From Eledone cirrhosa (Eukaryota): 64,000 nt of DNA. The notes beneath the pieces were generated by a model. That model was not told where the DNA came from, searched no databases, and saw only the letters and a program-made list of their open reading frames with translations. Shown here piece by piece: positions 3,376 to 62,632 of the stretch (position 1 is the stretch's first letter; every line of letters begins with the position of its first letter). The stretch lies in assembly GCA_964016885.1 (NCBI GenBank), contig OZ024745.1:75144001-75208000 (forward strand), in the 5' to 3' direction. Made by a program: the position numbers and the translations under genes.

Positions 3376-6300
3376 ATGAGGTAGATCTGCTGAAATAGCG
3401 GAGATGCTGGAGTGAAGGCAGGTGGATGTGTGCTGCGTGCAAGAGGTGAGATGGAGAGGTGCCTCTGCGAGACTAGTCGTAGGCAAACGTCTTAGCTATA
3501 AGCTATTCTGGGTAGGTAAGGATGATGTGTTAGGGGGAGTAGGCATTTTCCTGGCTGAGAAATGGATCAATAAGACAATAGAGGTAGTTCGAGTTAGTAA
3601 TCGAATAATTAAGCTTAGATTAGTTGTAGGCAGGAGACTACTGACAATCATCTCCGCCTATGCTCCCCAAGCAGGCCTAAGCAAAGATGAGAAAGACTGC
3701 TTTTATGAGCAACTTTTCCAAACAACCGCAATGACAGAGGACGGAGACATCGTTATGCTAGCAGGAGACTTCAATGGTCATGTTGGACAGCTCCAGGATG
3801 GTTACACTGGGGTACATGGTGGGCACGGTTACAGTTCAAGAAATGAAGAAGGAGTGAGACTTCTTGAATTTTGTGATGCAGGTACATTGACTATTTGCAA
3901 CACAAACTTCCAGAAACCTGCCAATCACCTAATAACCTACAAATCTGGTGAGCACATAAGCCAGATTGACTTCTTACTAGTTAGGCAGTGGGACAGGCAG
4001 ATAGTGTCTAATACCAAGGCATACCCTGGGGAAGAATGTACCCCACAGCATAGGTTAGTTGTTAGTGATATCTCAGTAAGCAAGAGATGGAATGAGACAT
4101 ATAGGAAGGTGTGGAGAAGAAAGGTCTGGAAGCTAAAAGACCTTTCACTAAAATACAAATTTAGGAAAGCCCTTCAAGATGTATATGACGAAAAAGAAGA
4201 CGATTTAGAGACGTATGACAGATAATAACTGGAATTTCTTACGTGACAATTTGCTGCAGGCTACTGATGAAATTTGTGGCTGGAGCAGAGCTCCAACCAG
4301 ACAGAGAGTGACCTGGTGGTGGAACAGCACAGTAGATAAGGCCATTAGAGACAAAAGACTAGCATGGAAGGCTTGGAAAAAGGGTGGGAGTAGGGAAGAA
4401 TATACAGCCACTAAGACAGAAGCTAGACGTCAGGTGTACTTAGCACGCAGGGAGGCAGAGAGTAGGAGGTTTGCCAATGTTCTGCGACGGGAAGATCAGA
4501 GGCGTGCGGTGTTCCACATTGCAAGGCAGTGTGTCAATGCAAATCAGGATGTTGTTGGAGATAAATGTGTCCGGGATGATGCCGGTGTTCTTAGTGTCAC
4601 GAATGATCAGAAAAAGGAGGTCTGGAAATGTCATTATGAGAGACTGATGAATGTGGAGAACAAATGGGAGAGAGAGAAATTACCCTTGGTAGATCCGACA
4701 GAGGGACCAGCTATTGAGATTGACGAATATAGGGTCCAAGAGGCGATTAGGGAAATGAAAAATGGTAAGGCTGCCTGACCATCGGGAATAGTTGCTGAGA
4801 TGCTGAAGGCATCAGAGGACGTAGGCACTAAACTGGTTGCACGCATCATCAATCAGGCTATATATGGTGGTGTCATACCCAAAGACTGGTGCAGCAGTAT
4901 TCTCATAAATTGCTACAAAGGTAAAGGGGATGCTTTGGAGAGGAGCAATTATAGGGGTATAAAACTGATAGATCAGGTTATGAAAGTGGCAGAAAGGATT
5001 TTAGCATAACTAATTAGAGAAAGGGTCAAACTAGATGAGATGCAGTTTGGTTTTGTGCCTGGGAAGAGTACAACAGATGCCCTCTTCTTGGTGAGACAAT
5101 TGCAAGAGAGGTTCTTAGAGAAGAATAAGCCACTATACTTAGTCTTTGTTGACCTCGAGAAGGCCTTTGATAGGGTACCCCGATCTGTCATCTGGTGGTC
5201 CCTAAGGAAGCTAGGTGTTGAGGAATGGCTTGTGAGGACAGTGCAAACTTTGTACAGGGTACTCTCAGTAAAGTCAGGGTAGGAATGGAGTTTAGTGAGG
5301 AATTCCAGATACAAGTAGGAGTACATCAGGGTTCGGTCCTCAGCCCGCTCTTGTTCATTATAGTCCTCCAAGCCATAACAGAGGAGTTTAAGACTGGCTG
5401 TCCATGGGAACTTCTCTATGCTGACGATCTGGTTCTTATAGCAGAATCAGTAGAGGAGCTAGAGAATAAATTCTGGCTATGGAAACAGCAGTTGGAAGCA
5501 AGAGGACTGAGAGTGAACCTAGCTAAGACAAAAGTGTTGATGAGTAGAAAAGAGGACAAAACCCTGATTTCGTCAGGGAAATGGCCATGTTCGATATGCA
5601 GAAAAGGAACTGGCATAAATTCTATAAAATGCACACAATGCAGATCCTGGGTACACAAGAGATGTAGCGGGATAGCAGGCAAACTAACAGGTAGGGAGAA
5701 ATATGTATGCAGTAGATGTACAGGGAAATTAGACAGTAGAAGTCGCATTGATAGACACATTTTTCAAATGCAGGAGGGCGCTATAGAAGTGGTGGATAGC
5801 TTCCGGTACCCAGGAGATCAGATTAGCATGGGAGGAGGGTGTTCCGAGGCCATAGTATCTAGAATAGATTGAAAGAAGTTTAGGGAGCTGCTTCCTCTGT
5901 TGACGAAGAAGGGTTTCTCCCTGCGTACGAAAGGCCTGTTGTATGATGCCTGTGTGAGGAGCGCGATGCTGCATGGTAGTGGGACATGGGCAGCAACTGC
6001 AGAGGATATGCGACGGCTGGAGAGAAATGAGGCAAGCATGCTCCATTGGATGTGCAGTGTAAATGTGCGTGAACGACCCAGCATAAATGTGTTGAGAGAG
6101 AAACTGTGTCTGAGAGGGATAGAATGTAGTGTACGGGAGAGGAGACTGAGGTGGTATGGACATGTGATGCGCATGGAGGATGACCGATGGGTGAAGAAGT
6201 GCCAGGAAATGCCAGTTGAAGGAAGACGTGGTAGAGGTAGACCACGAAAAACATGGGCGGAGGTGGTGAGAATAGACCTCAGATCATTGAAGCTCACGGT

Positions 6301-6408
6301 GGAGATGACGAAGGACCGTGACCAGTGGAGAGATGCTGTGCTGAATAAGACCTGTCCCACCCTTGCAAGTAGGGAAAAGCGGACGTAAAATGATGATGAT
6401 GATGATGA
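3376..6408 (+). mobile_element. RTE-clade LINE, near full-length ORF (AP endonuclease + RT + PHD-like finger), disrupted
   Basis: APE motifs (CCVQE, SAYAPQ, GDFNGH, SQIDF, QHRLV), RT motifs (QFGF, DLEKAFD, GVHQGSVLSP, YADD); several stops and frameshifts; (GAT)n tail. Confidence 0.95.
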
Positions 6409-8505: not shown

Positions 8506-11500
8506 CTGGTGAAACGTGGAAGAGAGATACCAGCTGGTCTGAGTGTGCTCTACCCACAATAACTGGTAATGAAAAAACTGCAACAACTCTGGGAAACTAA
8601 ACCAGAACAACGAGCCACCCTCTACACACCATCATAAACTGCAAGTAGGGTACAAATTGTTGTCCTTAAATGCTCGCAGTTTATGCAACAAGATTCATCC
8701 GTTTGACTCCTACGTCAGAAGCATCGACCCTGACTTCATCACAGTCACGGAAACATGGGCACATTCCTTACTCTTTGATGGGGTTTTCAGCATTACTGGG
8801 TACAACCTTTTCCGCAATGACCACATTAATCGCCGTGGTGGTGGTGTGATGGTCTACGTTTGTTCAAACTTTTCGGTAATTCCTTGCGTTGATTTGAACG
8901 AATCACAGGAAGAAGTTTTTTTCTGTGACATACGTATGACTATGTCAACACTTCTGCTTGGTGTTGTTTATCACCCCCCAAACTACCATCAGGACACACA
9001 GCTTTGCGATATCCTCAGAGTTGCTGCCAAGAAAACAGCCACTTATGTGTTTATTACAGGTGACTTCAATCATCCTGAGATCGATTGGGAAATCTTTCAT
9101 TGGCCACAAGGTGCAAACGATTTCCTTGAACTAGTGCTGGACTCAAACTGGTCACAAGTAGTCACCTCTGCAACAAGAGGTGACAACACTTTGGACCTGA
9201 TCTTCACCACTACTCCTGAAGTGGTTATCAGTTGTACTACTGAGGAACCTCTAGGCGACTCTGATCATGCTATGATCATTGCCAATCTGGCACTTGCGGG
9301 CAGCAACAAAAACCAGAGCCATCTCCAATCTGCTTGCTTTGATTGGAAGAAAGCAGATTGGAACTTGTACTGCACTGAGCTACAGCGCCCAAACTGGCAT
9401 GAGATGTATAACTCTGGAGATGTGAACACTATACTCCAGAGCATCCTGGACTCAATATGGATAGCGTGTGCAGCATCGGTGCCACGTAAGCAGAAAAAAA
9501 ACCACCCCAAAAGTGCAATTTGGGAAACTTCAGCGGTCCGACTTGCCAGGAAAGAACGTCGGAACGCTGAACGGGAATATAAACTGCATAAATCAGATGC
9601 CAACAGAAAAAAGCGGAATAAATCTTCTAACCATCTCAAGCAAGTGACAAAGAAAGCAGTGCTTGAATTTGAACAGTGCATAGCAACCAATCCTGACAGT
9701 AAGGTGTTCTGGAAATATGTTCATTCAAAGCAGAGACCTCACTCTCCAGTTGGTCCTCTTCGCAATCCCCACACAAGCCAGATCACTGACGATCCCAAAG
9801 AATGCGCAGAACTCATTGTTGAGTGCTATGCAAGTATTTTTACTGTTGAAAACCAGAATGTACCATCTCCACCATCTCTAACATCAAATTCCATAACAAC
9901 TATGGAATTTACACCTGCAATGTTGTGACGTCACCTTAAGAATAAGCGCAACTATGCCTCCCCTTGTCTTGATGGTGTTACATACCTGATTCTCAAACGT
10001 GGCGGGTATTTCCTTTTGCGCCAGCTTTCTTTCTTCTTTCAATACTGCCTCAACAATGGTGCTACTCTGGAGCAGTGGAAAACTGCCAGTGTCATTCCCC
10101 TGTTCAAAAAGGGCAACCGCATGTCACCTGTCAACTATCGTCCAGTCAGTTTTACTAGCTGTATGGCCAAACTGATGGAATCCTGTGTCAGAAAAACACT
10201 TTGGAACTTCTGGAGCTCTCACAGCCTCATCCGGCCCTCACAATTTGGATTTATCCCTAACTCCAGCTGCTGTGATCAGCCTATCGAGTTCCTTGAAGAC
10301 ATCACCCGGATCACTGACAGCAGCTCATGGGTGGATGTTGTTTACCTTGACTTTGCTAAGGCTTTTAATTCTGTGCCACACAAAAGACTTATGGCAAAAC
10401 TCTCTGCAATGGGTGTGAGGGATGATCTTTTCGACTGGTTGAAATCCTTCATTCTCAGCCGAAAAGAAGTAGTCACGGTTCTAGGACAGCATTCTTCACC
10501 ATATGAGATGTCATTTGGTGTACCACAGGGATCTGTTTTGGTCCCCTTTTGTTTGTGGCATATATTAATGACATAGATGCCAACTTACAGAATGCCACAG
10601 TACTGAAATATGCAGATGACATCAAGCTGTACCTTGAAATCAAAAGGACTGATCCTGAAATCTACAACTCTTTCCTACAATCAGACCTGGACACAATGCA
10701 GCAATGGATCACAGACTGGCAACTGAAGCTGGCTGTGGACAAGTGTACCACCATGCATTTTGGGAGGAAAAACCAGCCTCCACATACTCCCTCCACAACA
10801 CTGATATCAAGAAGTCCTCTTGTGAACATGACCTGGGCATTACTGTCAGCAGCGATTTGCGTTGGACAAAGCATGTCTCTAAGATTGTCAAGAAGGCCGA
10901 GGGTGTCTTGGCATCACTCAGCAAGACCTTTGTTAGCCGCTCTCCAGCCATCTATTTAAAACTGTATACAGCTATGGTACGACTACACTTGGAATTTGCA
11001 TCATCAGTCTGGAACTCCTACCTTGCTCAGAACATTGACCTCCTGGAAACTGTTCAGAGACGTGCAACCAAGCGCATACCCTCCATCAGACACCTACCAT
11101 ACTCTGAATGCCTTGCTTTCCTGGGCATGGATTCATTGAAGCTGCGACGTCTGGCAATGGACTTGGTAAATACCCACAAAGTTATTAACCATCTCGCCAA
11201 CAACAACCCTGAGCACCTTTTTGATCTCCATGTGTCTAACATACGTGGACATGGCTACAAAATCAGAAAACAGCACAGCTCCCATGACTTTCGTAAACAT
11301 TTTTTCACGCTCAGAGTTGCTGAAGCATGGAACAAACTGCCTGCGTCAGTTGTTAGCTGCCGAGACACTGCATCCTTTAAGACACTCATGCTTCCCGAAA
11401 TATGCCAAAACTACACCTGATGTACCCCTTCCATACACATGCACACATGTGTATATCATGACTCATGCACTGTTCATTTTTCTGATGTTTGTACATTACC

Positions 11501-11575
11501 CTATGTACTATACATACACTTTTTGATGAGTTGTAGTGCACCTGAGCACTGTACACAATATTTCATTATTATTAT
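8502..11575 (+). mobile_element. CR1-group LINE ORF2 (APE + RT), disrupted, (ATT)n tail
   Basis: LNARSL, TETW, GDFNHP, LDLIF, SDH; NYRPVS, QFGF, LDFAKAF, GVPQGS, KYADD; C-terminal RGHGYKI...RKHFFTLRVAEAWNKLP typical of CR1. Confidence 0.92.
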
Positions 11576-11675
11576 ATATTCATATATATATATATAATAA
11601 CTAGAAATTGATTAACATATAAATAAACATGAATAATCACAAGAGATAATTTGGATATAGATATATATATCATAA

Positions 11676-12382
11676 TCTATAAAGCTCAGTGTGTGGTCAT
11701 GCTCCTTCGTTATAGAAATCTACGATATAGAATTTCTTCAATTGAAATTTACAATTCAGTATTCGAAATTGTTTCGATTGCGTCTTGACGCAGATAATTT
11801 TTTCAATTTCACCCACAATTACGGAAAAAATAGATAAAACTCAATATTTTACGATTTGTCTCTCTCATTTAAACTGCTGAAGTCTTTCTACTACCATTCA
11901 AAATCTATACAACTTCATACTTTCTGCTACTTTCTCTTTCCAAGCTTGATGGTGATACTGTCCGTTCACACCACTCCCTACTGTCTTAAATTTAGAAAAC
12001 ACATATCCTCTATGAGGTTACTAAACCTGCTAGAAACAACAGCTAACTCTCCCTCATATCACAACCCTCCCTACTGTCTTAAATTTAGAAAACACACAGA
12101 CAACCATGCAGAACAACTCCATTGCAGCTCTGTTGTTCGGCTGGCATCGTCTACGCGCGTGTTGCGCAAGTACTGTGAAATAATAAATTTCAACACTTTT
12201 TTGCACAGAGATAATATCCATAGGCGAAACTACAATTGTCACTGCTGGCGCAGCTTCTGCTTCCAGGTCTGCAATTCATTCACCCAGTGCCTGGCAGACA
12301 AAAAAGTGCTGCCATAAAATGGGTGGTGCAACCTAACTTTGGTAACTTAATGACTCCGAGCAACGCCGGGCTTTAATGCTAA
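11676..12382 (+). mobile_element. Putative non-autonomous Helitron-like element
   Basis: Starts TCTATA; ends with hairpin ccgagcaacgccggg followed by a CTAG-like gctaat; the same 3' end occurs at 51658-51687. Confidence 0.55.
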
Positions 12383-12826: not shown

Positions 12827-12839
12827 ATATATATATATA

Positions 12840-12899
<60 letters not shown>

Positions 12900-12903
<4 letters not shown>

Positions 12904-15900
12904 TATAGACATAGAATATTCGAAAATATTCTGTATGTTTATAATAAACATTTTGAAGACCTAATCGCTATAGAATAGAATACGTCACGTATTACAATTA
13001 GATTCTCGATAAAAGCAAGGGAAGTAATCTACGCGTTTCATTCTTGTTAGAAATCATCAGGACCACATATCCAGTGCTTTTATCGAGAATGACACAGCTA
13101 GAGACTTATAGAATACTTAGCTGTGTACAGGAACTGGTTTGAAAGAGCGGTTGCCGGTCCGGCAGAAATTAGAAATTGGAATAAATGCTCTGAAATAGCG
13201 ATATATATGTGAATATAGACATAGAATATTCGAAAATATTCTGTATGTTTATAATAAACATTTTGAAGACCTAATCGCTATAGAATAGAATACGTCACGT
13301 ATTACAATTAGATTCTCGATAAAAGCAAGGGAAGTAATCTACGCGTTTCATTCTTGTTAGAAATCATCAGGACCACATATCCAGTGCTTTTATCGAGAAT
13401 GACACAGCTAGAGACTTATAGAATACTTAGCTGTGTACAGGAACTGGTTTGAAAGAGCGGTTGCCGGTCCGATTCCAATTTCTAATTTCTGCCGGACCGG
13501 CAACCGCTCTTTCAAACCAGTTCCTGTACACAGCTAAGTATTCTATAAGTCTCTAGCTGTGTCATTCTCGATAAAAGCACTGGATATGTGGTCCTGATGA
13601 TTTCTAACAAGAATGAAACGCGTAGATTACTTCCCTTGCTTTTATCGAGAATCTAATTGTAATACGTGACGTATTCTATTCTATAGCGATTAGGTCTTCA
13701 AAATGTTTATTATAAACATACAGAATATTTTCGAATATTCTATGTCTATATTCACATATATATCGCTATTTCAGAGCATTTATTCCAATTTCTAATTTCT
13801 GCCGGACCGGCAACCGCTCTTTCAAACCAGTTCCTGTACACAGCTAAGTATTCTATAAGTCTCTAGCTGTGTCATTCTCGATAAAAGCACTGGATATGTG
13901 GTCCTGATGATTTCTAACAAGAATGAAACGCGTAGATTACTTCCCTTGCTTTTATCGAGAATCTAATTGTAATACGTGACGTATTCTATTCTATAGCGAT
14001 TAGGTCTTCAAAATGTTTATTATAAACATACAGAATATTTTCGAATATTCTATGTCTATATTCACATATATATCGCTATTTCAGAGCATTTATTCCAATT
14101 TCTAATTTCTGCCGGACCGGCAACCGCTCTTTCAAACCAGTTCCTGTACACAGCTAAGTATTCTATAAGTCTCTAGCTGTGTCATTCTCGATAAAAGCAC
14201 TGGATATGTGGTCCTGATGATTTCTAACAAGAATGAAACGCGTAGATTACTTCCCTTGCTTTTATCGAGAATCTAATTGTAATACGTGACGTATTCTATT
14301 CTATAGCGATTAGGTCTTCAAAATGTTTATTATAAACATACAGAATATTTTCGAATATTCTATGTCTATATTCACATATATATCGCTATTTCAGAGCATT
14401 TATTCCAATTTCTAATTTCTGCCGGACCGGCAACCGCTCTTTCAAACCAGTTCCTGTACACAGCTAAGTATTCTATAAGTCTCTAGCTGTGTCATTCTCG
14501 ATAAAAGCACTGGATATGTGGTCCTGATGATTTCTAACAAGAATGAAACGCGTAGATTACTTCCCTTGCTTTTATCGAGAATCTAATTGTAATACGTGAC
14601 GTATTCTATTCTATAGCGATTAGGTCTTCAAAATGTTTATTATAAACATACAGAATATTTTCGAATATTCTATGTCTATATTCACATATATATCGCTATT
14701 TCAGAGCATTTATTCCAATTTCTAATTTCTGCCGGACCGGCAACCGCTCTTTCAAACCAGTTCCTGTACACAGCTAAGTATTCTATAAGTCTCTAGCTGT
14801 GTCATTCTCGATAAAAGCACTGGATATGTGGTCCTGATGATTTCTAACAAGAATGAAACGCGTAGATTACTTCCCTTGCTTTTATCGAGAATCTAATTGT
14901 AATACGTGACGTATTCTATTCTATAGCGATTAGGTCTTCAAAATGTTTATTATAAACATACAGAATATTTTCGAATATTCTATGTCTATATTCACATATA
15001 TATCGCTATTTCAGAGCATTTATTCCAATTTCTAATTTCTGCCGGACCGGCAACCGCTCTTTCAAACCAGTTCCTGTACACAGCTAAGTATTCTATAAGT
15101 CTCTAGCTGTGTCATTCTCGATAAAAGCACTGGATATGTGGTCCTGATGATTTCTAACAAGAATGAAACGCGTAGATTACTTCCCTTGCTTTTATCGAGA
15201 ATCTAATTGTAATACGTGACGTATTCTATTCTATAGCGATTAGGTCTTCAAAATGTTTATTATAAACATACAGAATATTTTCGAATATTCTATGTCTATA
15301 TTCACATATATATCGCTATTTCAGAGCATTTATTCCAATTTCTAATTTCTGCCGGACCGGCAACCGCTCTTTCAAACCAGTTCCTGTACACAGCTAAGTA
15401 TTCTATAAGTCTCTAGCTGTGTCATTCTCGATAAAAGCACTGGATATGTGGTCCTGATGATTTCTAACAAGAATGAAACGCGTAGATTACTTCCCTTGCT
15501 TTTATCGAGAATCTAATTGTAATACGTGACGTATTCTATTCTATAGCGATTAGGTCTTCAAAATGTTTATTATAAACATACAGAATATTTTCGAATATTC
15601 TATGTCTATATTCACATATATATCGCTATTTCAGAGCATTTATTCCAATTTCTAATTTCTGCCGGACCGGCAACCGCTCTTTCAAACCAGTTCCTGTACA
15701 CAGCTAAGTATTCTATAAGTCTCTAGCTGTGTCATTCTCGATAAAAGCACTGGATATGTGGTCCTGATGATTTCTAACAAGAATGAAACGCGTAGATTAC
15801 TTCCCTTGCTTTTATCGAGAATCTAATTGTAATACGTGACGTATTCTATTCTATAGCGATTAGGTCTTCAAAATGTTTATTATAAACATACAGAATATTT

Positions 15901-16577
15901 TCGAATATTCTATGTCTATATTCACATATATATCGCTATTTCAGAGCATTTATTCCAATTTCTAATTTCTGCCGGACCGGCAACCGCTCTTTCAAACCAG
16001 TTCCTGCACACAGCTAAGTATTCTATAAGTCTCTAGCTGTGTCATTCTCGATAAAAGCACTGGATATGTGGTCCTGATGATTTCTAACAAGAATGAAACG
16101 CGTAGATTACTTCCCTTGCTTTTATCGAGAATCTAATTGTAATACGTGACGTATTCTATTCTATAGCGATTAGGTCTTCAAAATGTTTATTATAAACATA
16201 CAGAATATTTTCGAATATTCTATGTCTATATTCACATATATATCGCTATTTCAGAGCATTTATTCCAATTTCTAATTTCTGCCGGACCGGCAACCGCTCT
16301 TTCAAACCAGTTCCTGTACACAGCTAAGTATTCTATAAGTCTCTAGCTGTGTCATTCTCGATAAAAGCACTGGATATGTGGTCCTGATGATTTCTAACAA
16401 GAATGAAACGCGTAGATTACTTCCCTTGCTTTTATCGAGAATCTAATTGTAATACGTGACGTATTCTATTCTATAGCGATTAGGTCTTCAAAATGTTTAT
16501 TATAAACATACAGAATATTTTCGAATATTCTATGTCTATATTCACATATATATCGCTTTTTCAGAGCATTTATTCCA

Positions 16578-16584
<7 letters not shown>
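12900..16584 (+). mobile_element. Retrozyme-like tandem array: 310-bp unit, 10 sense copies (13472-16584) + about 1.85 inverted copies (12900-13471)
   Basis: gccggaccgg recurs at 13491, 13801 ... 16281 (period 310); only two substitutions seen (16007, 16558); one HHR per unit; (TA)n on both sides. Confidence 0.85.
13588..13630 (+). ncRNA. Type-I hammerhead ribozyme (first sense copy; repeats every 310 bp)
   Basis: GTGGTC-CTGATGA-T-TTCT(aaca)AGAA-T-GAAA-CGCG-TA-GATTAC; stem I GUGGUC/GAUUAC, palindromic ACGCGT in stem III, predicted cleavage after GUA at 13624. Confidence 0.85.
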
Positions 16585-16616
<32 letters not shown>

Positions 16617-16621
<5 letters not shown>

Positions 16622-17022
16622 AATGAATAATAACAGGTAGACATCATAAAAAGGTAATTTATTCCGTGTGCTTACATATCAAATATCAAATGCTGTGACC
16701 ACTGTATCATCAGAGCAGAATGGTTAAAATACAGTGGGCACAGCATTTGATATTTGAGTTTTGCAAATAGTTGTAAATTTGCAGATAGCATAACTAGGCT
16801 GTATAACCACCGTGGAAACATTTGTAAGCACACGGAATAAATAACCTTTTTATGATGTCTACCTGTTATTATTCATTCTTTATCTACACTCCGGAATACA
16901 GAAGGATCAGGAACTAAGTTTCTTCAACAATTCTTCCATAACTCGTTGAGTAACCTCTCACCGTACGTCAACCATATCCAGTGTAGTAATTAACCATTAC
17001 TGCATCTAGGATAATCCTATAC

Positions 17023-17025
<3 letters not shown>
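16617..17025 (+). mobile_element. PLE-end-like remnant with inverted arms (about 16617-16677 / 16822-16882) and tail
   Basis: aaagaatgaataataacaggtagacatcataaaaagg is the reverse complement of ccttttta...attcattcttt; GAAACATTTGTA partial HHR motif; in (TA)n. Confidence 0.55.
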
Positions 17026-17060
<35 letters not shown>

Positions 17061-18008: not shown

Positions 18009-18793
18009 TCAGAACGCGGATGTAGTAAAGAGATTGGTGGTACTTGTTTCCTGTGGCTGTTTGCTGCTTGCTGTCTCAGCATAGCTGCTGCATGTGAAGC
18101 CTACATTCTTAATTAAGCTTCCTGAGATCCCGCTACATCTCTTGTGTACCCATTGTTTGCATTTGGGGCAGAGAATGGAGTTCCTACCTACAACTTTCGT
18201 ACATACTGAGCAAGGCCATTTCCCTGAGGGGATCTGGGTTCTGTTTTCTCGTCTACTTACAAGGACCTTAGTCTTTGTCATGTTGACTTTGAGACCCTTT
18301 CTTTCTAATCCCTGCTTCCAAGTTTGGAATTTATTCTCTAGTTCTACCATAGATTCAGCTATGAGTGCGAGGTCATCAGCATACAGGAGTTCCCATGGGC
18401 ATCCGGTCTTAAACTCCTCCGTTATTGCCTGCAGGACTATGATGAACAGGAGGGGGCTAAGAACAGAGCCCTGGTGGACCCCAACCTGTACGCTAAATTC
18501 CTCGCTATACTCATTGCTAATCCTAACTTTGCTGACTGCTCCCCTATACATGGCTTGTACCGCTTTCACAAGCCATTCATCTACTCCTAGTTTTCTAAGA
18601 GCCCACCAGATTACAGCACGTGGAACTCTGTCAAAGGCTTTCTCAAGGTCGACAAATGCCAAGTAGAGTGGCTTACTTTTAGCTAGGTACTTTTCCTGTA
18701 ATTGCCTCACAAGGAAGAGGGCATCAGTGGTGCCTCTTCCTAGTACAAACCCAAATTGCATCTCGTCTATTTTCACCCAGTCCCTAATCAACT

Positions 18794-18798
<5 letters not shown>
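18009..18798 (-). mobile_element. Internal RTE RT fragment
   Basis: QFGF, DLEKAFD, GVHQGSVLSP, YADD, PHD-like Cys cluster. Confidence 0.9.
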
Positions 18799-18841
<43 letters not shown>

Positions 18842-18867
18842 CAACTGTGACATATATATATATATAT

Positions 18868-20702
18868 GGGACGGGGGTGTATTTTGTTAGAGATGCCTAC
18901 TGACTGTAGTAGGTTTTACTTTGTATTTAGGTAAGGCGGGTCTTCTCTGTTACTGAGTACCGCCAAAGGTCTCGGTCCAGTGACATTGTCTTGGAGAGGT
19001 GGAAGTGTGTGAGGTCGGAATTTATCAGCTCGTCCCAAGTTTTTCTGGGTCTGCCTACTCCGTAGCTACCATCTATCTTTATTGCCCTGCACTTTGTTAT
19101 ACAGTTGTCGTCTTTCATGCGCATCACGTGACCATACCAACGTAGCCTTCTCTCGAGTAAACAACATCTGATCCCTCTTATTTCTAATTTTTTCCTTAGT
19201 TCGTTTATGCTTTGCCGTTCACGTATATTACTATTACACATCCAGCGGAGCATGCAAGCTTTGTTCCTCTCTAGTCTGCGTATATCCTCTGCACACAATG
19301 CCCAGGTCTCACTGCCATGCAACATTGCTGTTCGTATGCAGGCATCATACAACCTGCCTTTCATTTTTAGGGAGAACCCTTTAGCGGCTAATAGTGGTAT
19401 AAGCTCTCTGAACTTTTTCCATCCAGTTCTGACTCTAGCTACTGTACTTTCAGAGCACCCTCCCCCACTGCTGATTTTGTCACCCAGGTAACGGAAGCTG
19501 TCCACTATTTCTATAGAACCCTCTGCGCAATTGAAAGAGCTAGTATTTTGTGGGCACTTGCTGCTACTTATTGCACCAGAGCACCGGCCACATGTAAAAT
19601 CTGTGTTCTTAGTTAGCTTACCTGTGATCCCACTACATCTTTTATGCACCCATACTTTGCATTTGGGACATAAAATGGAGTTTCTACCTACGCCTTTCCT
19701 ACACACTGAGCATGGCCATTTCCCGGAAGAGACCGGCGCCTTATTTTCTTTCCTAAAAACTAGAACTTTAGTCTTAGCCAGGTTAATTTTAAGGCCTTTT
19801 GATTCTAGGCCGTGCTTCCATGTTTGGAATTTCTTCTCTAGCTCGGCCATTGATTCAGCTATGAGTGTTAGATCATCTGCGTATAGGAGTTCCCATGGGC
19901 AGCCGGTCTTGAACTCCTCTGTTATAGCCTGAAGGGCAATAATAAATAGTAGGGGGCTAAGAACAGAGTCCTGATGGACACCAACTTTTACGCTAAACTC
20001 TTCACTATATTCGTTGTTAATTCTAACCTTGCTGACTGTTTCTTTATACATGGCTTGTATAGCTCTCACAAGCCATTCGTCAACACCTAGTTTTCTAAGA
20101 GCCCACCAGATAATGGAACGGGGGACTCTGTCGAAGGTTTTCTCCAAGTCGACAAAAGCTAAGTATAGGGGTTTACTTTCAGCTAGGTACTCCTCCTGTA
20201 GTTGTCGTACAATGAAAAGAGCGTCTGTGGTACTTTTGCCTGACACAAACCCGAACTGCATTTCATCTAGATCAATTCTCTCTCTGATTAGTTGCGCTAT
20301 TACTTTTTCCGTGACCTTCATGACCTGGTCGATTAATTTAATGCCTCTATAGTTACTCCTATCTAGGGCGTCTCCTTTACCCTTGTAACAGTTAACGATG
20401 ATGCTGCTACGCCAGTCCTTCGGAACAACCCCATTCTGTATGACTTGGTTTACTATCCGGGTGACCATGGTGTGTCCCACCGTACCAGAGGCTTTCAGCA
20501 TCTCAGCAACTATTTCCGAAGGCCCAGCCGCCTTACCCGTCTTCATATCTTTGATTGCCTTACTTATTATACTACCTTCGACTAACACTGCTGATCCCTC
20601 TCTTGGGTCGATGAGGGGGAGACTGTCTTTCTCCCATTTATTCTCCTCATTTAGTAGCCTTTCGTAGTGACACTTCCAAGCTACCTTCTTATCAGCGTCA
20701 GT
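18868..20702 (-). mobile_element. 5'-truncated RTE LINE with uninterrupted 553-aa RT ORF (18927-20588)
   Basis: Complete RT motif set, PHD-like finger and RTE C-terminus in a single frame. Confidence 0.95.
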
Positions 20703-20751
20703 ACGTATGTATATATATATATGTATATATATATATACGTATGTATATATA

Positions 20752-23335
20752 TATGCATCTTATTCTACAACTATGAATATGGCCCAAAACATTGCTAAAA
20801 TAAACAGTAAAATTCTAAAGCAGAATTAGCATAATGATTTTAATAATAGTGTTAACATAAATAATAATAAATCAAAATGTAGTTGTAGAAATAAACCAGA
20901 TTGCCCTCTGCAAAATAATTGTTTGGACAGTAATTTGGTGTATAAATGCACCGTAAAAACTGATTACAACACATACAACTACATAGGACCGACTTCTACA
21001 TTTAAGGCTAGATTTGAAATCATAAATGCTCATTTTCGAATTCTAATAGGAAATCATCGATTTCTTTATCACAGCTTATATGGTCATTAACAGACAAAAA
21101 TTTAAAATACTCTATCTTTTGGACGAAACTTTGTAATAGTGGAGTTTATTGCAACTCAAGTATATCAAGTAACTGCGCTCTCTGTACAATGGAGACCCTA
21201 TTGATAATTAATAATTATGAAAACTTAATTAACAAAAAAAGTGAATTATTCTCAAACTGCCTTCATAAAGCTTTGTCTACATTCCAAGCCTCGCATAAGG
21301 TCAGGAAAAAACAGTAAGCAACCAAGCCTGGCTTTTAGACGTACATCATCAATTGTTGGAAATATAAATCATAATGGCTTATAAAACTTTAATAATGCTT
21401 TATCTTCTAATCATTTATAATGGAAATAATGTTTGAATGAATGACACTTGTTTAAGAATATGTTGGCAGGTTGATATACATAATCTATGGCTTTTTGGAT
21501 ATTATTAACTTTGATCCAGACCTTTATTTTTCTATCTCTGTTTTAAATATAGTTTTGATATCTAACCTGTAAATTTTTACGGACCTTATTTTGAACTGTG
21601 GATCATTCATGCGTTTACATTTTTATATATATCTATGTATTTTATAGTTATGCATGTATGAATCTATTATCTAAGATTATAATCGTTATCCTTTACTAAA
21701 TGTATACCGTCTCATTAATACTTAGTATATCTCTCTATATGTAGTTGGTGCAAATATGTTTATATTGTATAATAACATAATCATAATTATAGTTCGGTAT
21801 TTCATCATTATCATTATCATCATTTTACATCCACTTTTCCCTGCTTACAAGGGTGGGACGGGAACTGATTCTGGCTTGATTTCTACAGCTGGATGCCCTT
21901 CCTAACACCAACCTCATTTACAGTGAGTGTTGCATGCTTTTTTGCCGTGGCACCTCCACGACCACTTTGCAGTGGAATGATAGGGACCCCAGACCCTATC
22001 ATCTCATTTCTACAGCTGAGTAAACTGGAGCAATATGAAATAAAGTGTCTTGCTTAAGGAAACAACACATCACTCGGTCTGAGAATTACTCACAACCTTT
22101 CGATTGCAAGCTCAATGCTCTAACCACTAAGCCATGTGCCTCCATTATATCTCTGTATATAGCTTTGTGCAAATATGTTTATAATGTATAACACAATCAT
22201 AATTTTAGTTCGGTATAACTCTATATATAGCTTGTGCATATATATTTATATTGTATATTAACATAATCATAATTAGAGTTTGGTTCTTCCCTTGAAGGCT
22301 GAACTAATGTAGTGATAATATATGAACAAATAATAAAAAATAATAATTTATAGTCCTCTTATTACGATCAATGCACACATATATATATATATATTTACAG
22401 CTGAAAACTCTGGTTTAATTGTTATACTTTAGACACTATAACTATTTAACAATAAATTCCTTGATAATTATAACTGTAAATACTTCATAAACTATACATA
22501 CGGAAAATGTTGACACTGTTACAAGTAATATTGTTAAAGATTACCTTTGCGTGAATATTGAACAGTATATATTTTTCTTTCACGGGCCTAGTAAATCCTT
22601 TAAATTTGTTTTAATAAAACTTTGAATTTTAGAAATTTAACACATTTATAAAATTTAACACATTTATAAAATTTACAACACAAATAACCATCAACTTTTA
22701 AAACCTAAAATTTTGATTCGTTACCCTAAAATAACAAATTAAATTAAATATTTTGAAATTTAACTGCCAAGGCTATACATGTTTATATGTGTCTGAAGAA
22801 TATTTGTGCATAAATTACTCCCCTTTATCTCTCTCTCTTTAATTATCTATCAGTTGCATTCTCAAACTAAAAACTAAAAAAATTATAACTCCAGATATCT
22901 ATAGTCTTCCTCTATAGTCCTACAGTAGTATTTCAAACTTTAAAAACTCTATAATTGTTACATTAAAGCAATGTTTGTTTTACTCACACTCTCTATTGAT
23001 TCTATTACGTTTTCGCATGTTCTCATTTGTAGGGTATAAATATTGAGTTTTCTCATAAGTTAATCACTACCTTGATTAAATCTTAACCATCTAACATGTC
23101 AGGGTATGTCATGTATCATTTTATTTTATCTGATGAGGACGCACTGTTGAACTTGATTCAAGTACCTCTGAAATATGTATAATAAAATTTAATTGATCAC
23201 AAGAACATCTATTTTGTTAATATTTGAATTTAATATTAACAACTCTGGAAAATATACTCTGTAGAGTGCTTTCAATCTACTGTAAAACTCATTCTTTGAT
23301 GTACTCATTGAATCTTGTTTAACTCTATAAAACAT
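20752..23335 (+). mobile_element. Degenerate Penelope-like element: GIY-YIG remnant, long AT-rich 3' region and HHR-like motif
   Basis: About 20875-21015 translates KCSCRNKPDCPLQNNCLDSNLVYKCTVKTDYNTYNYIGPTSTFKARF (PLE GIY-YIG); CTGATGAGG...CCTCTGAAATATGTA at 23130-23179; right boundary uncertain. Confidence 0.7.
21802..22143 (-). mobile_element. tRNA/CORE-like SINE with RTE tail, nested in the PLE remnant
   Basis: Reverse complement of the 6898-7193 and 45187-45528 family. Confidence 0.88.
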
Positions 23336-44004: not shown

Positions 44005-44011
<7 letters not shown>

Positions 44012-45101
44012 CAAATAACGAAACGAAATTAAATTTTGTTTCGTTTGTAACTCACTTTTGTATGACTGACGCTTAAACAATTAAGTTAAAAATGTACATC
44101 TACATATGCATACTGAAATACTAGTGTGTATATGAATACACACACGTATACATATGTATATGTAACAAGTCTTTCACTGGTTGCTTTACTGTGAGCAACC
44201 CAGCTATTCTGTATGTAAACACACAGACAAACCGGTTTTTAGAGTCATACTGGTTTTCGGGGGAACACCTTCCCTCTATTCTCCAGAAAGCCAGACAAGG
44301 AATATTGAACTAGTTTCGTTGTTGTTACAACTCATCAGCAATATTTACCTATCTACCGGCCCTTCTGGAGAATTGTAAAAGCACATATCGTTATATGCTT
44401 TTTCTATGAAAATTAGTAGTGGGCAGACTAATTTGCATAGAGTGTGAGTACGCACCGGTTCAGCAGAGACGATAAAAACAAATAACGAAACGAAATTAAA
44501 TTTCGTTTCGTTTGTAACTCACTTTTGTATGACTGACGCTTAAACAATTAAGTTAAAAATGTACATCTACATATGCATACTGAAATACTAGTGTGTATAT
44601 GAATACACACACGTATACATATGTATATGTAACAAGTCTTTCACTGGTTGCTTTACTGTGAGCAACCCAGCTATTCTGTATGTAAACACACAGACAAACC
44701 GGTTTTTAGAGTCATACTGGTTTTCGGGGGAACACCTTCCCTCTATTCTCCAGAAAGCCAGACAAGGAATATTGAACTAGTTTCGTTGTTGTTACAACTC
44801 ATCAGCAATATTTACCTATCTACCGGCCCTTCTGGAGAATTGTAAAAGCACATATCGTTATATGCTTTTTCTATGAAAATTAGTAGTGGGCAGACTAATT
44901 TGCATAGAGTGTGAGTACGCACCGGTTCAGCGGAGACGATAAAAACAAATAACGAAACAAAATTAAATTTCGTTTCGTTTGTAACTCACTTTTGTAAGCA
45001 ACCAGTGAAAGACTTGTTACATATACATATGTATACGTGTGTGTATTCATATACACACTAGTATTTCAGTATGCATATGTAGATGTACATTTTTAACTTA
45101 A

Positions 45102-45103
<2 letters not shown>
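44005..45103 (-). mobile_element. Retrozyme-like tandem repeat: 467-bp unit x about 2.1 (44005-44996) + inverted partial copy (44996-45103)
   Basis: Unit starts at 44005, 44472, 44939; HHR per unit on the minus strand; (TA)n on both sides. Confidence 0.85.
44301..44345 (-). ncRNA. Type-I hammerhead ribozyme (second copy 44768-44812)
   Basis: Minus strand AATATTG-CTGATGA-GTTG(taacaa)CAAC-GAAA-CTAG-TT-CAATATT; perfect 7-bp stem I, palindromic ACTAGT in stem III. Confidence 0.9.
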
Positions 45104-59748: not shown

Positions 59749-62550
59749 AACGGCGATGAATTAGTTTTGCGAGGTTTTTTATATGAAATCGTGTGTCGAA
59801 ACAAATATTGTTATACTTGGGGAGGGTCATATTTGTGTAATATTGCGAGATTAATAACAGAACACACTCACTGTTTGGTTGGTTTTCGCTTTTCACTTCT
59901 GTGTCTTTTATATCGGTAATCTAATTTACTCGGTCCTCAATGTTGCCATTGACTGATCAACGGTCAAAAATAATACAGATACAATATAGACGCAAACACA
60001 TATATATAGTTTATCATAAATCTTTCGTTGCACATCTGCACTATCGTCAGTGGTGCTATTGTTTCCTCCTGTTGAATTGTATGGCTACACCATTTTTATT
60101 CAGTCTGTCTATATATTTATTTATTTATTTGCTTGTTTGTTTATTTTATTTTGTCTTCTTTGCGCATGCGTTTGCGTGTGTGTATAGTGTTTTGTTTGAT
60201 GTGTGATGTGTGTTCGTGATTGGGTGACTAATGTGTGTTTATGTGTTTGTTGTTATTGTGCTTGTGTATGTATTTATTTATTTATTTTATTTATTTATTT
60301 AATTTAATTTAATTTATTTATTTATACTTCTCTTAGGTCAGTGTTGTTTGTTTGGGTGTTGTTGTTATTCCATTCATTCTTTCTGTTTAGTCTTGGTCTT
60401 CTAAGTTCTATTTCACTGGCCTCTCTGATTTGCCTATCTGCTGGGTCATTTCTATGTTTAGATATTATTCTAATTTCTATGTTGTCTATGTTACCGTCAT
60501 GTTGTTGTCTGGCATGTTCGTATAGTACTGATCCGTCTTTTCGTCCTTTTAGTTCCCCCCAGTGTTGGTCTATCCTTTCACCTATGCTACGAGCTGTCTC
60601 ACCTATGTATGTTGTTGTCATGTTTCTGCAGGTACCCTCTGTACATCTTATGCTATAGACTACGTTTCTAGTTTTACAGTTTATCCGGGGGTTTACCTTA
60701 CATATGATACATTTCCTATTGGTACAGTGGGTTTTCTTAAAAGGGTAGGTTTTGCTGATCAGGGATTTTATGGTGGTTCCTGGCTTTTCTACCACCTTAA
60801 TTTTTAAGTGGGTCTTTCTCAGGGCCTTTCTACACTGGTTAGCTAATTTCCCTCCAGGGGTAGCGTCCACAAACATGACACTCTGGTATCTCTGGTTGTC
60901 GTACCATGAGGTGGCTTTCCCTGTCTTATGTTTAGCCCTATCTAAGCTATTCCATGATTTGCTCCTGTATAATGGGCAAATTCCTTTCATGTCCAGTTCT
61001 ATGAGGGTCTTATACTTCTCCATGGCTCCTTCGTATACTCTGACTCTGTCTCTTTGGTTGTAGCCAGAGAACTGCATGCGGTTGATGAAGTGTTGGATGT
61101 GTCTTTCCATTTCTGTTGGGTCGCACATGCGGGACATATTCTTCATCACTCGTACCAAATCTGCGATCAGAATATTAAACTTAGCACTACTGGACATTGC
61201 TGAGTTTTTGAGTATCAGGTATTTGGAGGCCATAGGTTTAGCATAGTGTGAGTGGAGAATTTGGGCTCTCTCGTCTATAGTGTTAATCCAGAGTTCTGTG
61301 TCTAATACAGGTAGTCTATTGTTAGGGTGTTTGGAAAGGTAGTCGATAGTTACAGTTATACTATGGTGTATGGAATTAGCTATCTGCTGGATGCTTTCCA
61401 TTGTGCTACGTTCTAAATCAAACTTGTTAGTGCTCTCTAGTGGGAATGTTCTTATAACTATATTGATATCGTCTACATCACGAGAGTACATGATGAGGTC
61501 TATGGAGCACTCATTAAGGGGATCTTTAAGTCGCCTTTCCCACCATACCATGAAAAGGTTGGCAACATCACCAGCTAGGCTGACGCCAATGGCTGCTCCT
61601 TCATTTTGGGTGTAGATCTTCTCGTTGAACTTAAATATGTGGCCCTTGAGGGTAGTTTTGATACTAGCCCCTATTGCATGTGCGACCATTTTTCTTACCT
61701 GATCATTGTTTTGGGGGGTCCGTATAGCTTTGGTCCACCCAATCCACCTTCCCATGGGAGTCTTTTTCGCCATTGGGGTTATGGTGGGGGGTCTACCTCT
61801 TATGGGTCTACTAGGGCAGAAACGTCTAAGGTCATGGCTGTCTAGGTAGTCAGTGTCGTAGGTAAGTCTAAGTAGGAGGCCCAGTTCGTCTGTGTCGACG
61901 TCGCAGAACTCCACCTCACTCTCAATGATCATCTCCACACATTTTTCCACAGCAAAATCAATGTTAATGGATGGGTACAGTGACACCACATCCATGCTGC
62001 CTATTATGCAGTTGGATAGGTTCCTGTTTTTGTTGCACTCACTGATTCTGCTGAGGAGGTCCTCTGTACTGTCACATACATCCGGGGACATCTTGATTAT
62101 GGGGCGTATAACCATTGAGAGGAAGTAGGAGATCCTGTAGTTGCTAGCTATATTAGCTCCGCATACGGGTCTTGTTGGTGGTCCTGTTGTCGAGTCGTCG
62201 ACTGTCTTGTGGTTTTGCGGAGCCCATACAAGGGTGGTATGCCATTGTTAGACGCCTGGAAGTTGTTGGCAGTGCGTCTGCTTGGCTTTAGGATGTCAGT
62301 CCACATCATCATGTGAGCGTTGAGGATTTTCTCTCTCCCATCGTGTGTTTGTTGTGCAATTTCGCTCGTGTTGGTGATGTGGGGTTGCATAGCCTTGATG
62401 TAGTTCTGTATGCTATCTATTGACATCCTACCAGACTTATCCGTGGGTAGACACAGAAGCGAAAAGCGAAAACCAACCAAACAGTGAGTGTGTTCTGTTA
62501 TTAATTCTGGCAATATTACACAAATATGACCCTCCCCAAGTATAACAATA
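59748..62550 (-). mobile_element. Penelope-like retroelement, 5'-truncated, with inverted pseudo-LTR (62449-62550) and RT + GIY-YIG ORF (60322-62115; upstream frameshifted part to about 62445)
   Basis: RPII, SMDVVSLYPSI, GAAIG, RDVDD (YVDD variant), LPVLD; CxxC..C..RNVVYSIRC...TYIGET.RSIGERIDQH...EASEI...LN; 62449-62550 is the reverse complement of 59805-59906; (TA)n on both sides. Confidence 0.95.
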
Positions 62551-62632
62551 TATATATATATATGTATATGTATATGTATATATGTATATATGTATATGTA
62601 TATGTATATATGTATATATATATGTATATGTA

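Follow-up and report, generated by a model that had tools for sequence, protein, structure and literature searches.

The window, by which we mean the whole stretch of 64,000 nt of Eledone cirrhosa DNA analysed here, contains at 12900-16584 a head-to-head array of 310-nt units which probably represents one insertion of a non-coding hammerhead non-LTR retrozyme, written by a borrowed Penelope-type reverse transcriptase (RT) that copied a single RNA circle. We infer the circle, the activity of the ribozyme and the partner enzyme from sequence; judged by its testable features, the element qualifies as a non-LTR retrozyme that Penelope machinery has moved. The pattern of variants within and between the arrays of this family favours the repeated reading of one monomer over the copying of a multimer.

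The array and its hammerhead motif

Self-comparison resolves the array into two arms, set in a (TA)n target that extends over 12827-12899 on the left and 16585-16618 on the right. The inverted arm (12900-13471, minus strand; 572 nt or 1.85 units) covers unit position 22 to 283 and has its short ('B') outer end at 12900, and the sense arm (13472-16584, plus strand) comprises 10.04 units of 310 nt and has its long ('A13') end at 16584; the two meet head to head at a blunt junction, 13471/13472. The sequence-only reading had described this as an inverted copy that pairs with 13493-14064 across a 21-nt spacer and leaves a tail unpaired, the whole lying in (TA)n. Most of that description holds: 12900-13471 is the exact reverse complement of 13493-14064, with the first mismatch at 12899/14065, and the inverted arm ends at unit position 283, which corresponds to 16544 in the last sense unit and directly adjoins the 40-nt tail (16545-16584, plus strand; first letters CATATATAT) found in the sense arm only. 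The length given for the spacer was also right, but 13472-13492 (plus strand) is no true spacer, since these 21 nt simply form the 5'-most part of the sense arm; nor does the pairing with 13493-14064 have a significance of its own, since the offset between inner ends is evenly spread across the 94 two-armed loci described below.

Exactly two substitutions occur in the 10.04 sense units, 16007 T>C and 16558 A>T, as had been claimed, and the inverted arm lacks the first of these at the corresponding site. Both ends of the array lie well away from the predicted hammerhead cut, again as claimed, at distances of 130 and 170 nt. No frame of at least 100 aa was found over the array, and the short, low-GC, tandemly repeated unit (310 nt, 10.04 copies) is of the kind that characterises non-LTR retrozymes. 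The left flank at 11530-12370 is a repeat itself (2037 first-look candidates). Immediately to the right of the array, 16613-17026 contains inverted 67-nt arms (16613-16679 and 16820-16886), which about 140 nt separate from the next (TA)n, and is possibly another two-armed Penelope-type end.

There is one type I hammerhead motif per 310-nt unit, which in the first sense unit occupies 13582-13636 (plus strand), with CUGAUGA at 13594-13600, GAAAC at 13615-13619 and a palindromic ACGCGU stem III. All core positions are present, stems I and II pair, and the cut is predicted after unit position 153 (13624 in the window). The assignment rests on the motif itself, because the Rfam model Hammerhead_HH9 scores 17.7 bits (E 0.081), well below its gathering score of 52; at the gathering threshold, Rfam gives no match in the window. 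The palindromic stem III is predicted to be able to pair as a 6-bp duplex between two copies, and the unit as a whole is predicted to fold well (z -4.75). The exact hammerhead-core pattern has 4584 occurrences in the genome. Variants that are common to several loci fall within the hammerhead in 10 of 15 cases (loop, N7 and wobble positions) and private variants in 0 of 16, core positions vary only as single-unit changes, and no fixed variant was found in the core among 93 two-armed loci; this distribution, although based on small numbers, suggests selection on the ribozyme.

Ends, targets and junctions across the genome

In the genome of 3.0 Gb, at least 1,109 copies, regarded as young, share the same long 3' end. 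The form ...TTCCAAT(AT)n has 1034 matches and the form found in the window, ...TTTCTA(TA)n, has 75, distributed over many contigs; reversed-pattern controls for both forms gave 0 matches, so the end patterns are not due to chance. Further match counts of 613 and 972 contain overlaps and do not serve as locus numbers. The family is dispersed as expected of a retrozyme (1034 and 75 end matches), in a genome that also holds young coding Penelope-like families with frames of up to 1217 aa.

We sampled 20 loci from the best DNA matches and a further 80 picked only by their long end, namely 60 of the first 61 TTCCAAT(AT)n matches listed and the first 20 TTTCTA(TA)n matches. An adjacent inverted arm is present in 75 of the 80 end-selected loci and absent from four, and L073 was left unjudged, its stretch stopping 9 nt beyond the arm. 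The outer end of the inverted arm lies at unit positions 271-292 in 74 of these 75 loci, the other being cut by the stretch edge. Considering all 94 two-armed loci, the commonest pairs of long and short ends are 8/283 (29 loci), 8/292 (23) and 13/283 (16), giving offsets of 35, 26 and 40 nt, respectively. By a strict test, both ends directly abut TA in 84 of 93 loci; among the nine that failed it, seven show TA immediately outside a family variant, another has short TA tracts and the last is rearranged. An inverted 5'-truncated copy, a tail at one end and a microsatellite or AT-rich target are the marks of a non-autonomous Penelope-like element. The sequence-only reading had expected the genomic copies to show a fixed 3' end, a variable number of units, 5' inversions and (TA)n flanks, and had named random ends without inversions as the finding that would speak against it; the former are what the copies have, and the narrow range of the outer ends is the opposite of the latter.

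A sibling family with a different hammerhead, about 75% alike in the start-site region (unit positions 212-78), was encountered at L047:340-666, L056:1603-1910, L089:9547-9856, L109:5751-6553 and L116:5243-5635. Where its arrangement can be seen (L056, L109), it is two-armed like the 310-nt family.

The lengths of the arms are compatible with an exponential distribution in each class, long-end arms having a mean of 1819 nt and a maximum of 14,079 nt, or 45 units (KS p 0.18), and short-end arms a mean of 1239 nt and a maximum of 6586 nt (KS p 0.39). Over the unit, the 188 inner ends show a uniform distribution (chi-square p 0.46). Four of them fall at positions 150-158, where 5.5 are expected, and we reject run-off at the hammerhead cut as the source of the inner ends. 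No inversion junction recurs among the 94 loci. Sixty of the junctions are blunt or overlapping and 34 have extra bases, and the overlap averages 1.7 nt (without one 16-nt case) versus 0.75 nt at random.

These data bear on the hypothesis, put forward for Penelope (PMC3846280), that the first cDNA folded back and primed itself, and that the inverted arm is the copy so made. The arms in the window could indeed pair across a loop of 21 nt, as a fold-back would predict. Yet the inner-end offset is spread evenly, with only 9 of 94 loci within 10 nt, the short-end arm is longer than the long-end arm in 42 of the 94, and at the mosaic loci L101 and L044 (see below) the inverted arm aligns with the outer end of the sense arm and not from the junction. 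On these three grounds we reject a fold-back origin, to which we attach hardly any probability.

It should be noted that the contigs of four public runs (X1, X2, X3 and X20) do not bridge the junction in the window, and that no strand-change joint is listed in X1; neither amounts to proof, although the former could be cited for the view that the arrays or their inversions are artefacts of assembly or amplification. The raw-read run X24 contributed 0 reads. Such an artefact is opposed by ends that stay fixed over more than 1,100 loci, by a junction that differs at each of 94, by haplotypes specific to their locus, and by the same geometry in other families and in the literature. The contigs of X1 also show TA loose ends at 13763 (nine contigs) and 13794 (one contig), which match the fixed ends, but this evidence is weak because X1 may be the assembled sample. 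Taken as a whole, an artefact is extremely improbable. Twenty public runs with 17 organism labels contain 0.64-0.89 of the sampled unit words (window 13625-13934), and X3, X5 and X10 each have a single 340-nt contig at low depth; none of the runs listed is recorded as RNA, which has no bearing on expression. Related species, transfer, diet and contamination are candidate sources of the unit words in other runs.

The ends and junctions fit the reading that we prefer, the copying of one RNA circle in one insertion. Paired hammerheads would cut array transcripts into 310-nt monomers that circularise, and such circles are known from the retrozymes of coral, mussel and axolotl (PMC7229834). A Penelope RT-endonuclease dimer would then nick both strands of (TA)n, to judge from the behaviour of an Anolis protein in vitro, and each nick would prime through AT/TA microhomology at one of two sites inside the RNA, separated by 26-40 nt, the positions of which are given by the observed ends. 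Both tracts would circle the same RNA with strand displacement and stop at random, as is suggested by the lengths and phases of the arms, and the cDNA ends would finally be joined head to head, in most of the observed junctions through 1-5 nt of microhomology or with a few extra bases. In the window, this would have resulted in about 10 turns for the sense arm and 1.85 turns for the inverted arm.

Variants and the template

Many units on two arms per locus make the template readable from its variants, and we therefore analysed 93 two-armed loci with 279 kb of units, omitting L093 (arm below 60 nt). In the end-selected loci with full coverage, the haplotype agrees from arm to arm in 60 of 61 cases, as opposed to 12% between loci, with 22 haplotypes present among the 61; both arms therefore derive from one RNA, or at least from one source. 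In 11 of the 93, a private variant is fixed in every unit that covers the site on either arm, and in up to 24 units (L106); private denotes a variant seen at no other locus of this sample, which takes in 93 out of more than 1,100. Using expectations that are built on today's singleton rate, which is overdispersed among loci, 11.6 such cases would be predicted if all templates were monomer circles, and 37 in-register shared variants if all were linear multimers, of which we saw three loci (L044, L082 and L101). The ratio of observed to expected variant classes favours monomer templates in about 92% of insertions, or roughly nine of ten events. Single-unit variants number 128 (0.46 per kb), and for 73 of these the corresponding site in the other arm lacks the change.

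The contending possibility that most insertions copy long uncleaved linear multimer transcripts, with two primings per RNA, draws support from in vitro work in which the predominant substrate is unprocessed RNA (PMC11167929), and from L044, L082 and L101, where the same mosaic is found in register in both arms and a multimeric template is therefore needed. Linear multimers do explain this minority, but the shortfall of in-register variants (3 against 37), the 73 variants missing from their matching site, the private variants fixed in up to 24 units and the lack of any recurring junction among 94 loci all speak against them, so that they are very unlikely to be the main route. In L101, the two outermost units of both arms are followed by a change of family haplotype, indicative of a mosaic multimer as template. 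The sequence-only reading had allowed for either a circular RNA or an uncleaved multimer: the re-reading of a monomer is borne out by the counts (11 seen, 11.6 expected), but the uncleaved linear multimer applies to only about 3 of 93 loci. Its further claim, that the RNA was copied about ten times round in a single insertion, is supported, with the qualification that the sense arm (about 10 turns) and the inverted arm (1.85) would be independent RT tracts of the same RNA.

Growth after insertion offers another route to long arrays, and a short birth from a linear dimer followed by extension of the arms through unequal crossover is favoured in the discussion of bioRxiv 10.64898/2026.07.22.740005. 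Unequal crossover preserves fixed ends and is able to fix a variant in all units, and there are loci at which it, or something like it, seems to have acted: variants are repeated inside an arm in L049, L063, L064 and the 45-unit L086/L087, and in L109 the two units of a single arm have a variant that the other arm lacks. A further departure from the simple re-reading of one monomer is seen in L064 and L121, where a variant is common to both arms out of register. From the repeats within arms we conclude that there has been some growth or conversion after insertion. The clearest case of post-insertion duplication is L086/L087 (G000:C1:97461003-97477500), where variants of the 45-unit arm recur at irregular spacing. 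As a general explanation, however, crossover has to contend with 128 single-unit variants versus about 10 repeated within an arm, and growth would have to end before mutations accumulate. The density of single-unit variants moreover shows no relation to length (rho -0.04, p 0.70), and among the 43 loci that measure at least 2.5 kb, 13 have no single-unit variant at all, so the arrays appear to have been born long. We regard growth by crossover as the main source of the arrays as very improbable.

A monomer need not be closed to be read repeatedly. A cleaved but unligated monomer could be held together by stem I pairing, with the RT jumping the nick precisely on each turn, and this predicts the same monomer bottleneck as a circle; the haplotype insertions 156insC and 156insT, which adjoin the predicted cut, count in its favour. 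Single-unit changes at positions 150-158 are nevertheless not in excess (2 seen, 3.7 expected), and neither are inner ends at the cut (4 of 188, as given above), which would require jumps of almost perfect precision. A nicked template is thus unlikely, and we retain the closed circle as the probable one.

Coding Penelope-like elements and known systems

The window also contains a 5'-truncated coding Penelope-like element (59752-62448, minus strand), identified by frame translation and self-comparison, with a 641-aa open frame at 60322-62247, a hammerhead-like core near 60010-60060 and a tail at 59752-59804. Its inverted short arm (62449-62551, plus strand; 103 nt) matches 59805-59906 at 97%. 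This element had been credited with the same geometry as the array, which is true of the inverted terminal copy and of the presence of a tail, but the tail measures 53 nt and not 40. The translation has RT-like and YIGET/CxxC motifs, and we take it to be an RT with a C-terminal GIY-YIG endonuclease. Its homologues are named RT-domain proteins, with PF01541 on two of the listed entries, and the nearest named relative is an RT protein of Octopus vulgaris at 68% identity; direct Pfam scans of both coding frames gave 0 families, and a comparison with PDB sequences gave nothing meaningful.

The coding family is young and abundant, with 14,911 first-look candidates and many long frames, the longest of 1217 aa. 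We examined 32 loci from RT matches, several of them picked for being multimeric. The unit is about 4.12 kb (4118 nt) and its ends fall into two classes, at unit positions 4065 and 4108-4118, and the head-to-head arms reach up to 3.1 units. The hammerhead occupies the untranslated gap that separates the stop from the following start; the frame opens a little upstream of the short end, continues through the tail and crosses the junction into the next unit. Differences amount to 0.53 per kb within loci (43 pairs) compared with 2.98 per kb between loci (1871 pairs), and L133/134, L139/140, L141/142 and L154 have private variants that are fixed throughout their tandem units. An inverted arm is seen in only 11 of 20 single-hit coding loci, one of the 20 lying at an assembly gap. 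We lean slightly toward the view that coding Penelope-like elements, too, transpose via hammerhead-made RNA circles, using one RT dimer and two start sites; the place of the hammerhead, the course of the frame and the private variants common to tandem units are in keeping with this. Their pseudo-LTRs, tandem copies, inverted arms and tail would then all be products of a single rolling event.

With respect to a partner for the array, the 310-nt unit has no sequence in common with the coding element of the window or its family, and no homology of the start sites to coding families was found in the 20 of 150 listed GIY-YIG loci that were compared. Several coding families and related hammerheads did emerge from this comparison, and the closest connection is through a hammerhead, which matches at 26 of 28 nt an element type that is joined to another RT/GIY-YIG family. 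The coding element is not established as the partner, because it shares the geometry of the array and not its sequence.

Several other insertions were noted in passing. A retrozyme-like insert at 44005-45103 of the window (minus strand) comprises 2.1 units of 467 nt with hammerhead cores at 44338 and 44805; its inverted arm (44996-45103) measures 108 nt and its tail 74 nt, and (TA)n lies to either side. A small head-to-head element at about 860-1440 has hammerhead cores at 1057 (minus) and 1188 (plus) and an end that resembles the end of the coding element at 59.7 kb; elements of the same type occur in L177 and L182. Three different two-armed Penelope-type inserts stand side by side in TA tracts at L182:531-3890, within a 3.2-kb block that is repeated 6.5 kb further on. 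Broken frames at 3416-6388, 8573-11420 and 18009-20759 of the window, with endonuclease and RT motifs, presumably belong to non-LTR retrotransposons, and exons of a host gene lie on the minus strand between about 39.5 and 48.6 kb.

In LINE-1 twin priming, synthesis is primed a second time, from the other target strand, and this produces an inverted 5' segment, which is joined through microhomology. The arrays described here likewise have an inverted segment joined with microhomology, but LINE-1 tracts copy different parts of a linear RNA, whereas here the tracts have fixed starts 26-40 nt apart and would copy the same sequence repeatedly.

The closest known elements are the non-LTR retrozymes (PMC7229834; bioRxiv 10.64898/2026.07.22.740005), which have low-GC tandem units of 150-450 bp with a type I hammerhead and no ORF, range from dimers to large multimers, are found alongside Penelope-like elements and are proposed to spread through circular RNA. 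As far as the consulted parts of these two sources go, they describe neither two-armed head-to-head multimers with fixed starts nor a variant-based test of rolling, and the word 'inverted' is absent from those of PMC7229834. Unlike the elements in the retrozyme reports, the 310-nt unit showed, in the loci compared, no homology to the terminal repeat of a partner beyond the hammerhead match mentioned above. EN+ Penelope-like elements (PMC8557442, PMC3846280) resemble the arrays in their inverted truncated copy at the 5' side, a one-ended tail of 30-40 bp, microsatellite targets and tandem copies; in contrast to these elements with their pseudo-LTRs, the arrays are non-coding and consist of two multimeric arms, which reach as many as 45 units.

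Poseidon of Anolis has been shown in vitro to use two internal RT starts and to have both target strands cut and extended (PMC11167929). The likeness extends to the two starts that bound the tail, the AT-rich targets and a predicted dimer, but the starts of Poseidon are without homology to the cut DNA, whereas all ends here have AT/TA microhomology and a monomer template is indicated; hammerhead cleavage is reported there as dispensable for insertion in vitro, and unprocessed multi-copy RNA is favoured (PMC11167929). The idea that hammerhead-cut RNA is ligated and yields more-than-unit reverse transcripts, which would explain tandem copies, was tentatively proposed in PMC4209133, and a circular template is treated as equally tentative in PMC7761336; the consulted parts of PMC6765202, PMC9977147 and PMC6431247 add nothing on this question. 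Inverted arms and the tail are not addressed in that part of PMC4209133 which sets out the circle hypothesis, and the present genome supplies counts by which it can be tested.

How Penelope-like elements form tandem and inverted structures, and what role the hammerhead plays in this, has been called open (PMC8557442, PMC7761336). Published views are divided between a circle with rolling RT (PMC4209133, PMC7229834) and either unprocessed multimer RNA (PMC11167929) or local unequal crossover (bioRxiv 10.64898/2026.07.22.740005), and in the literature searched, mainly open main texts, we found no prior genomic test of rolling-circle copying and no two-armed multimeric retrozymes. The model favoured here is directly testable, since the 310-nt substrate has mapped starts and the genome holds young open-frame enzymes; if it is right, satellite-like arrays can arise at full length, and a telomerase-related RT is able to go on copying round a small circle for several kilobases. 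Already in print are the kind of element (non-LTR retrozyme), the signature of the tail and the idea of the circle, and what the genome of Eledone cirrhosa adds to them is the two-armed multimer form at genome scale, together with a variant pattern that separates the rival published models.
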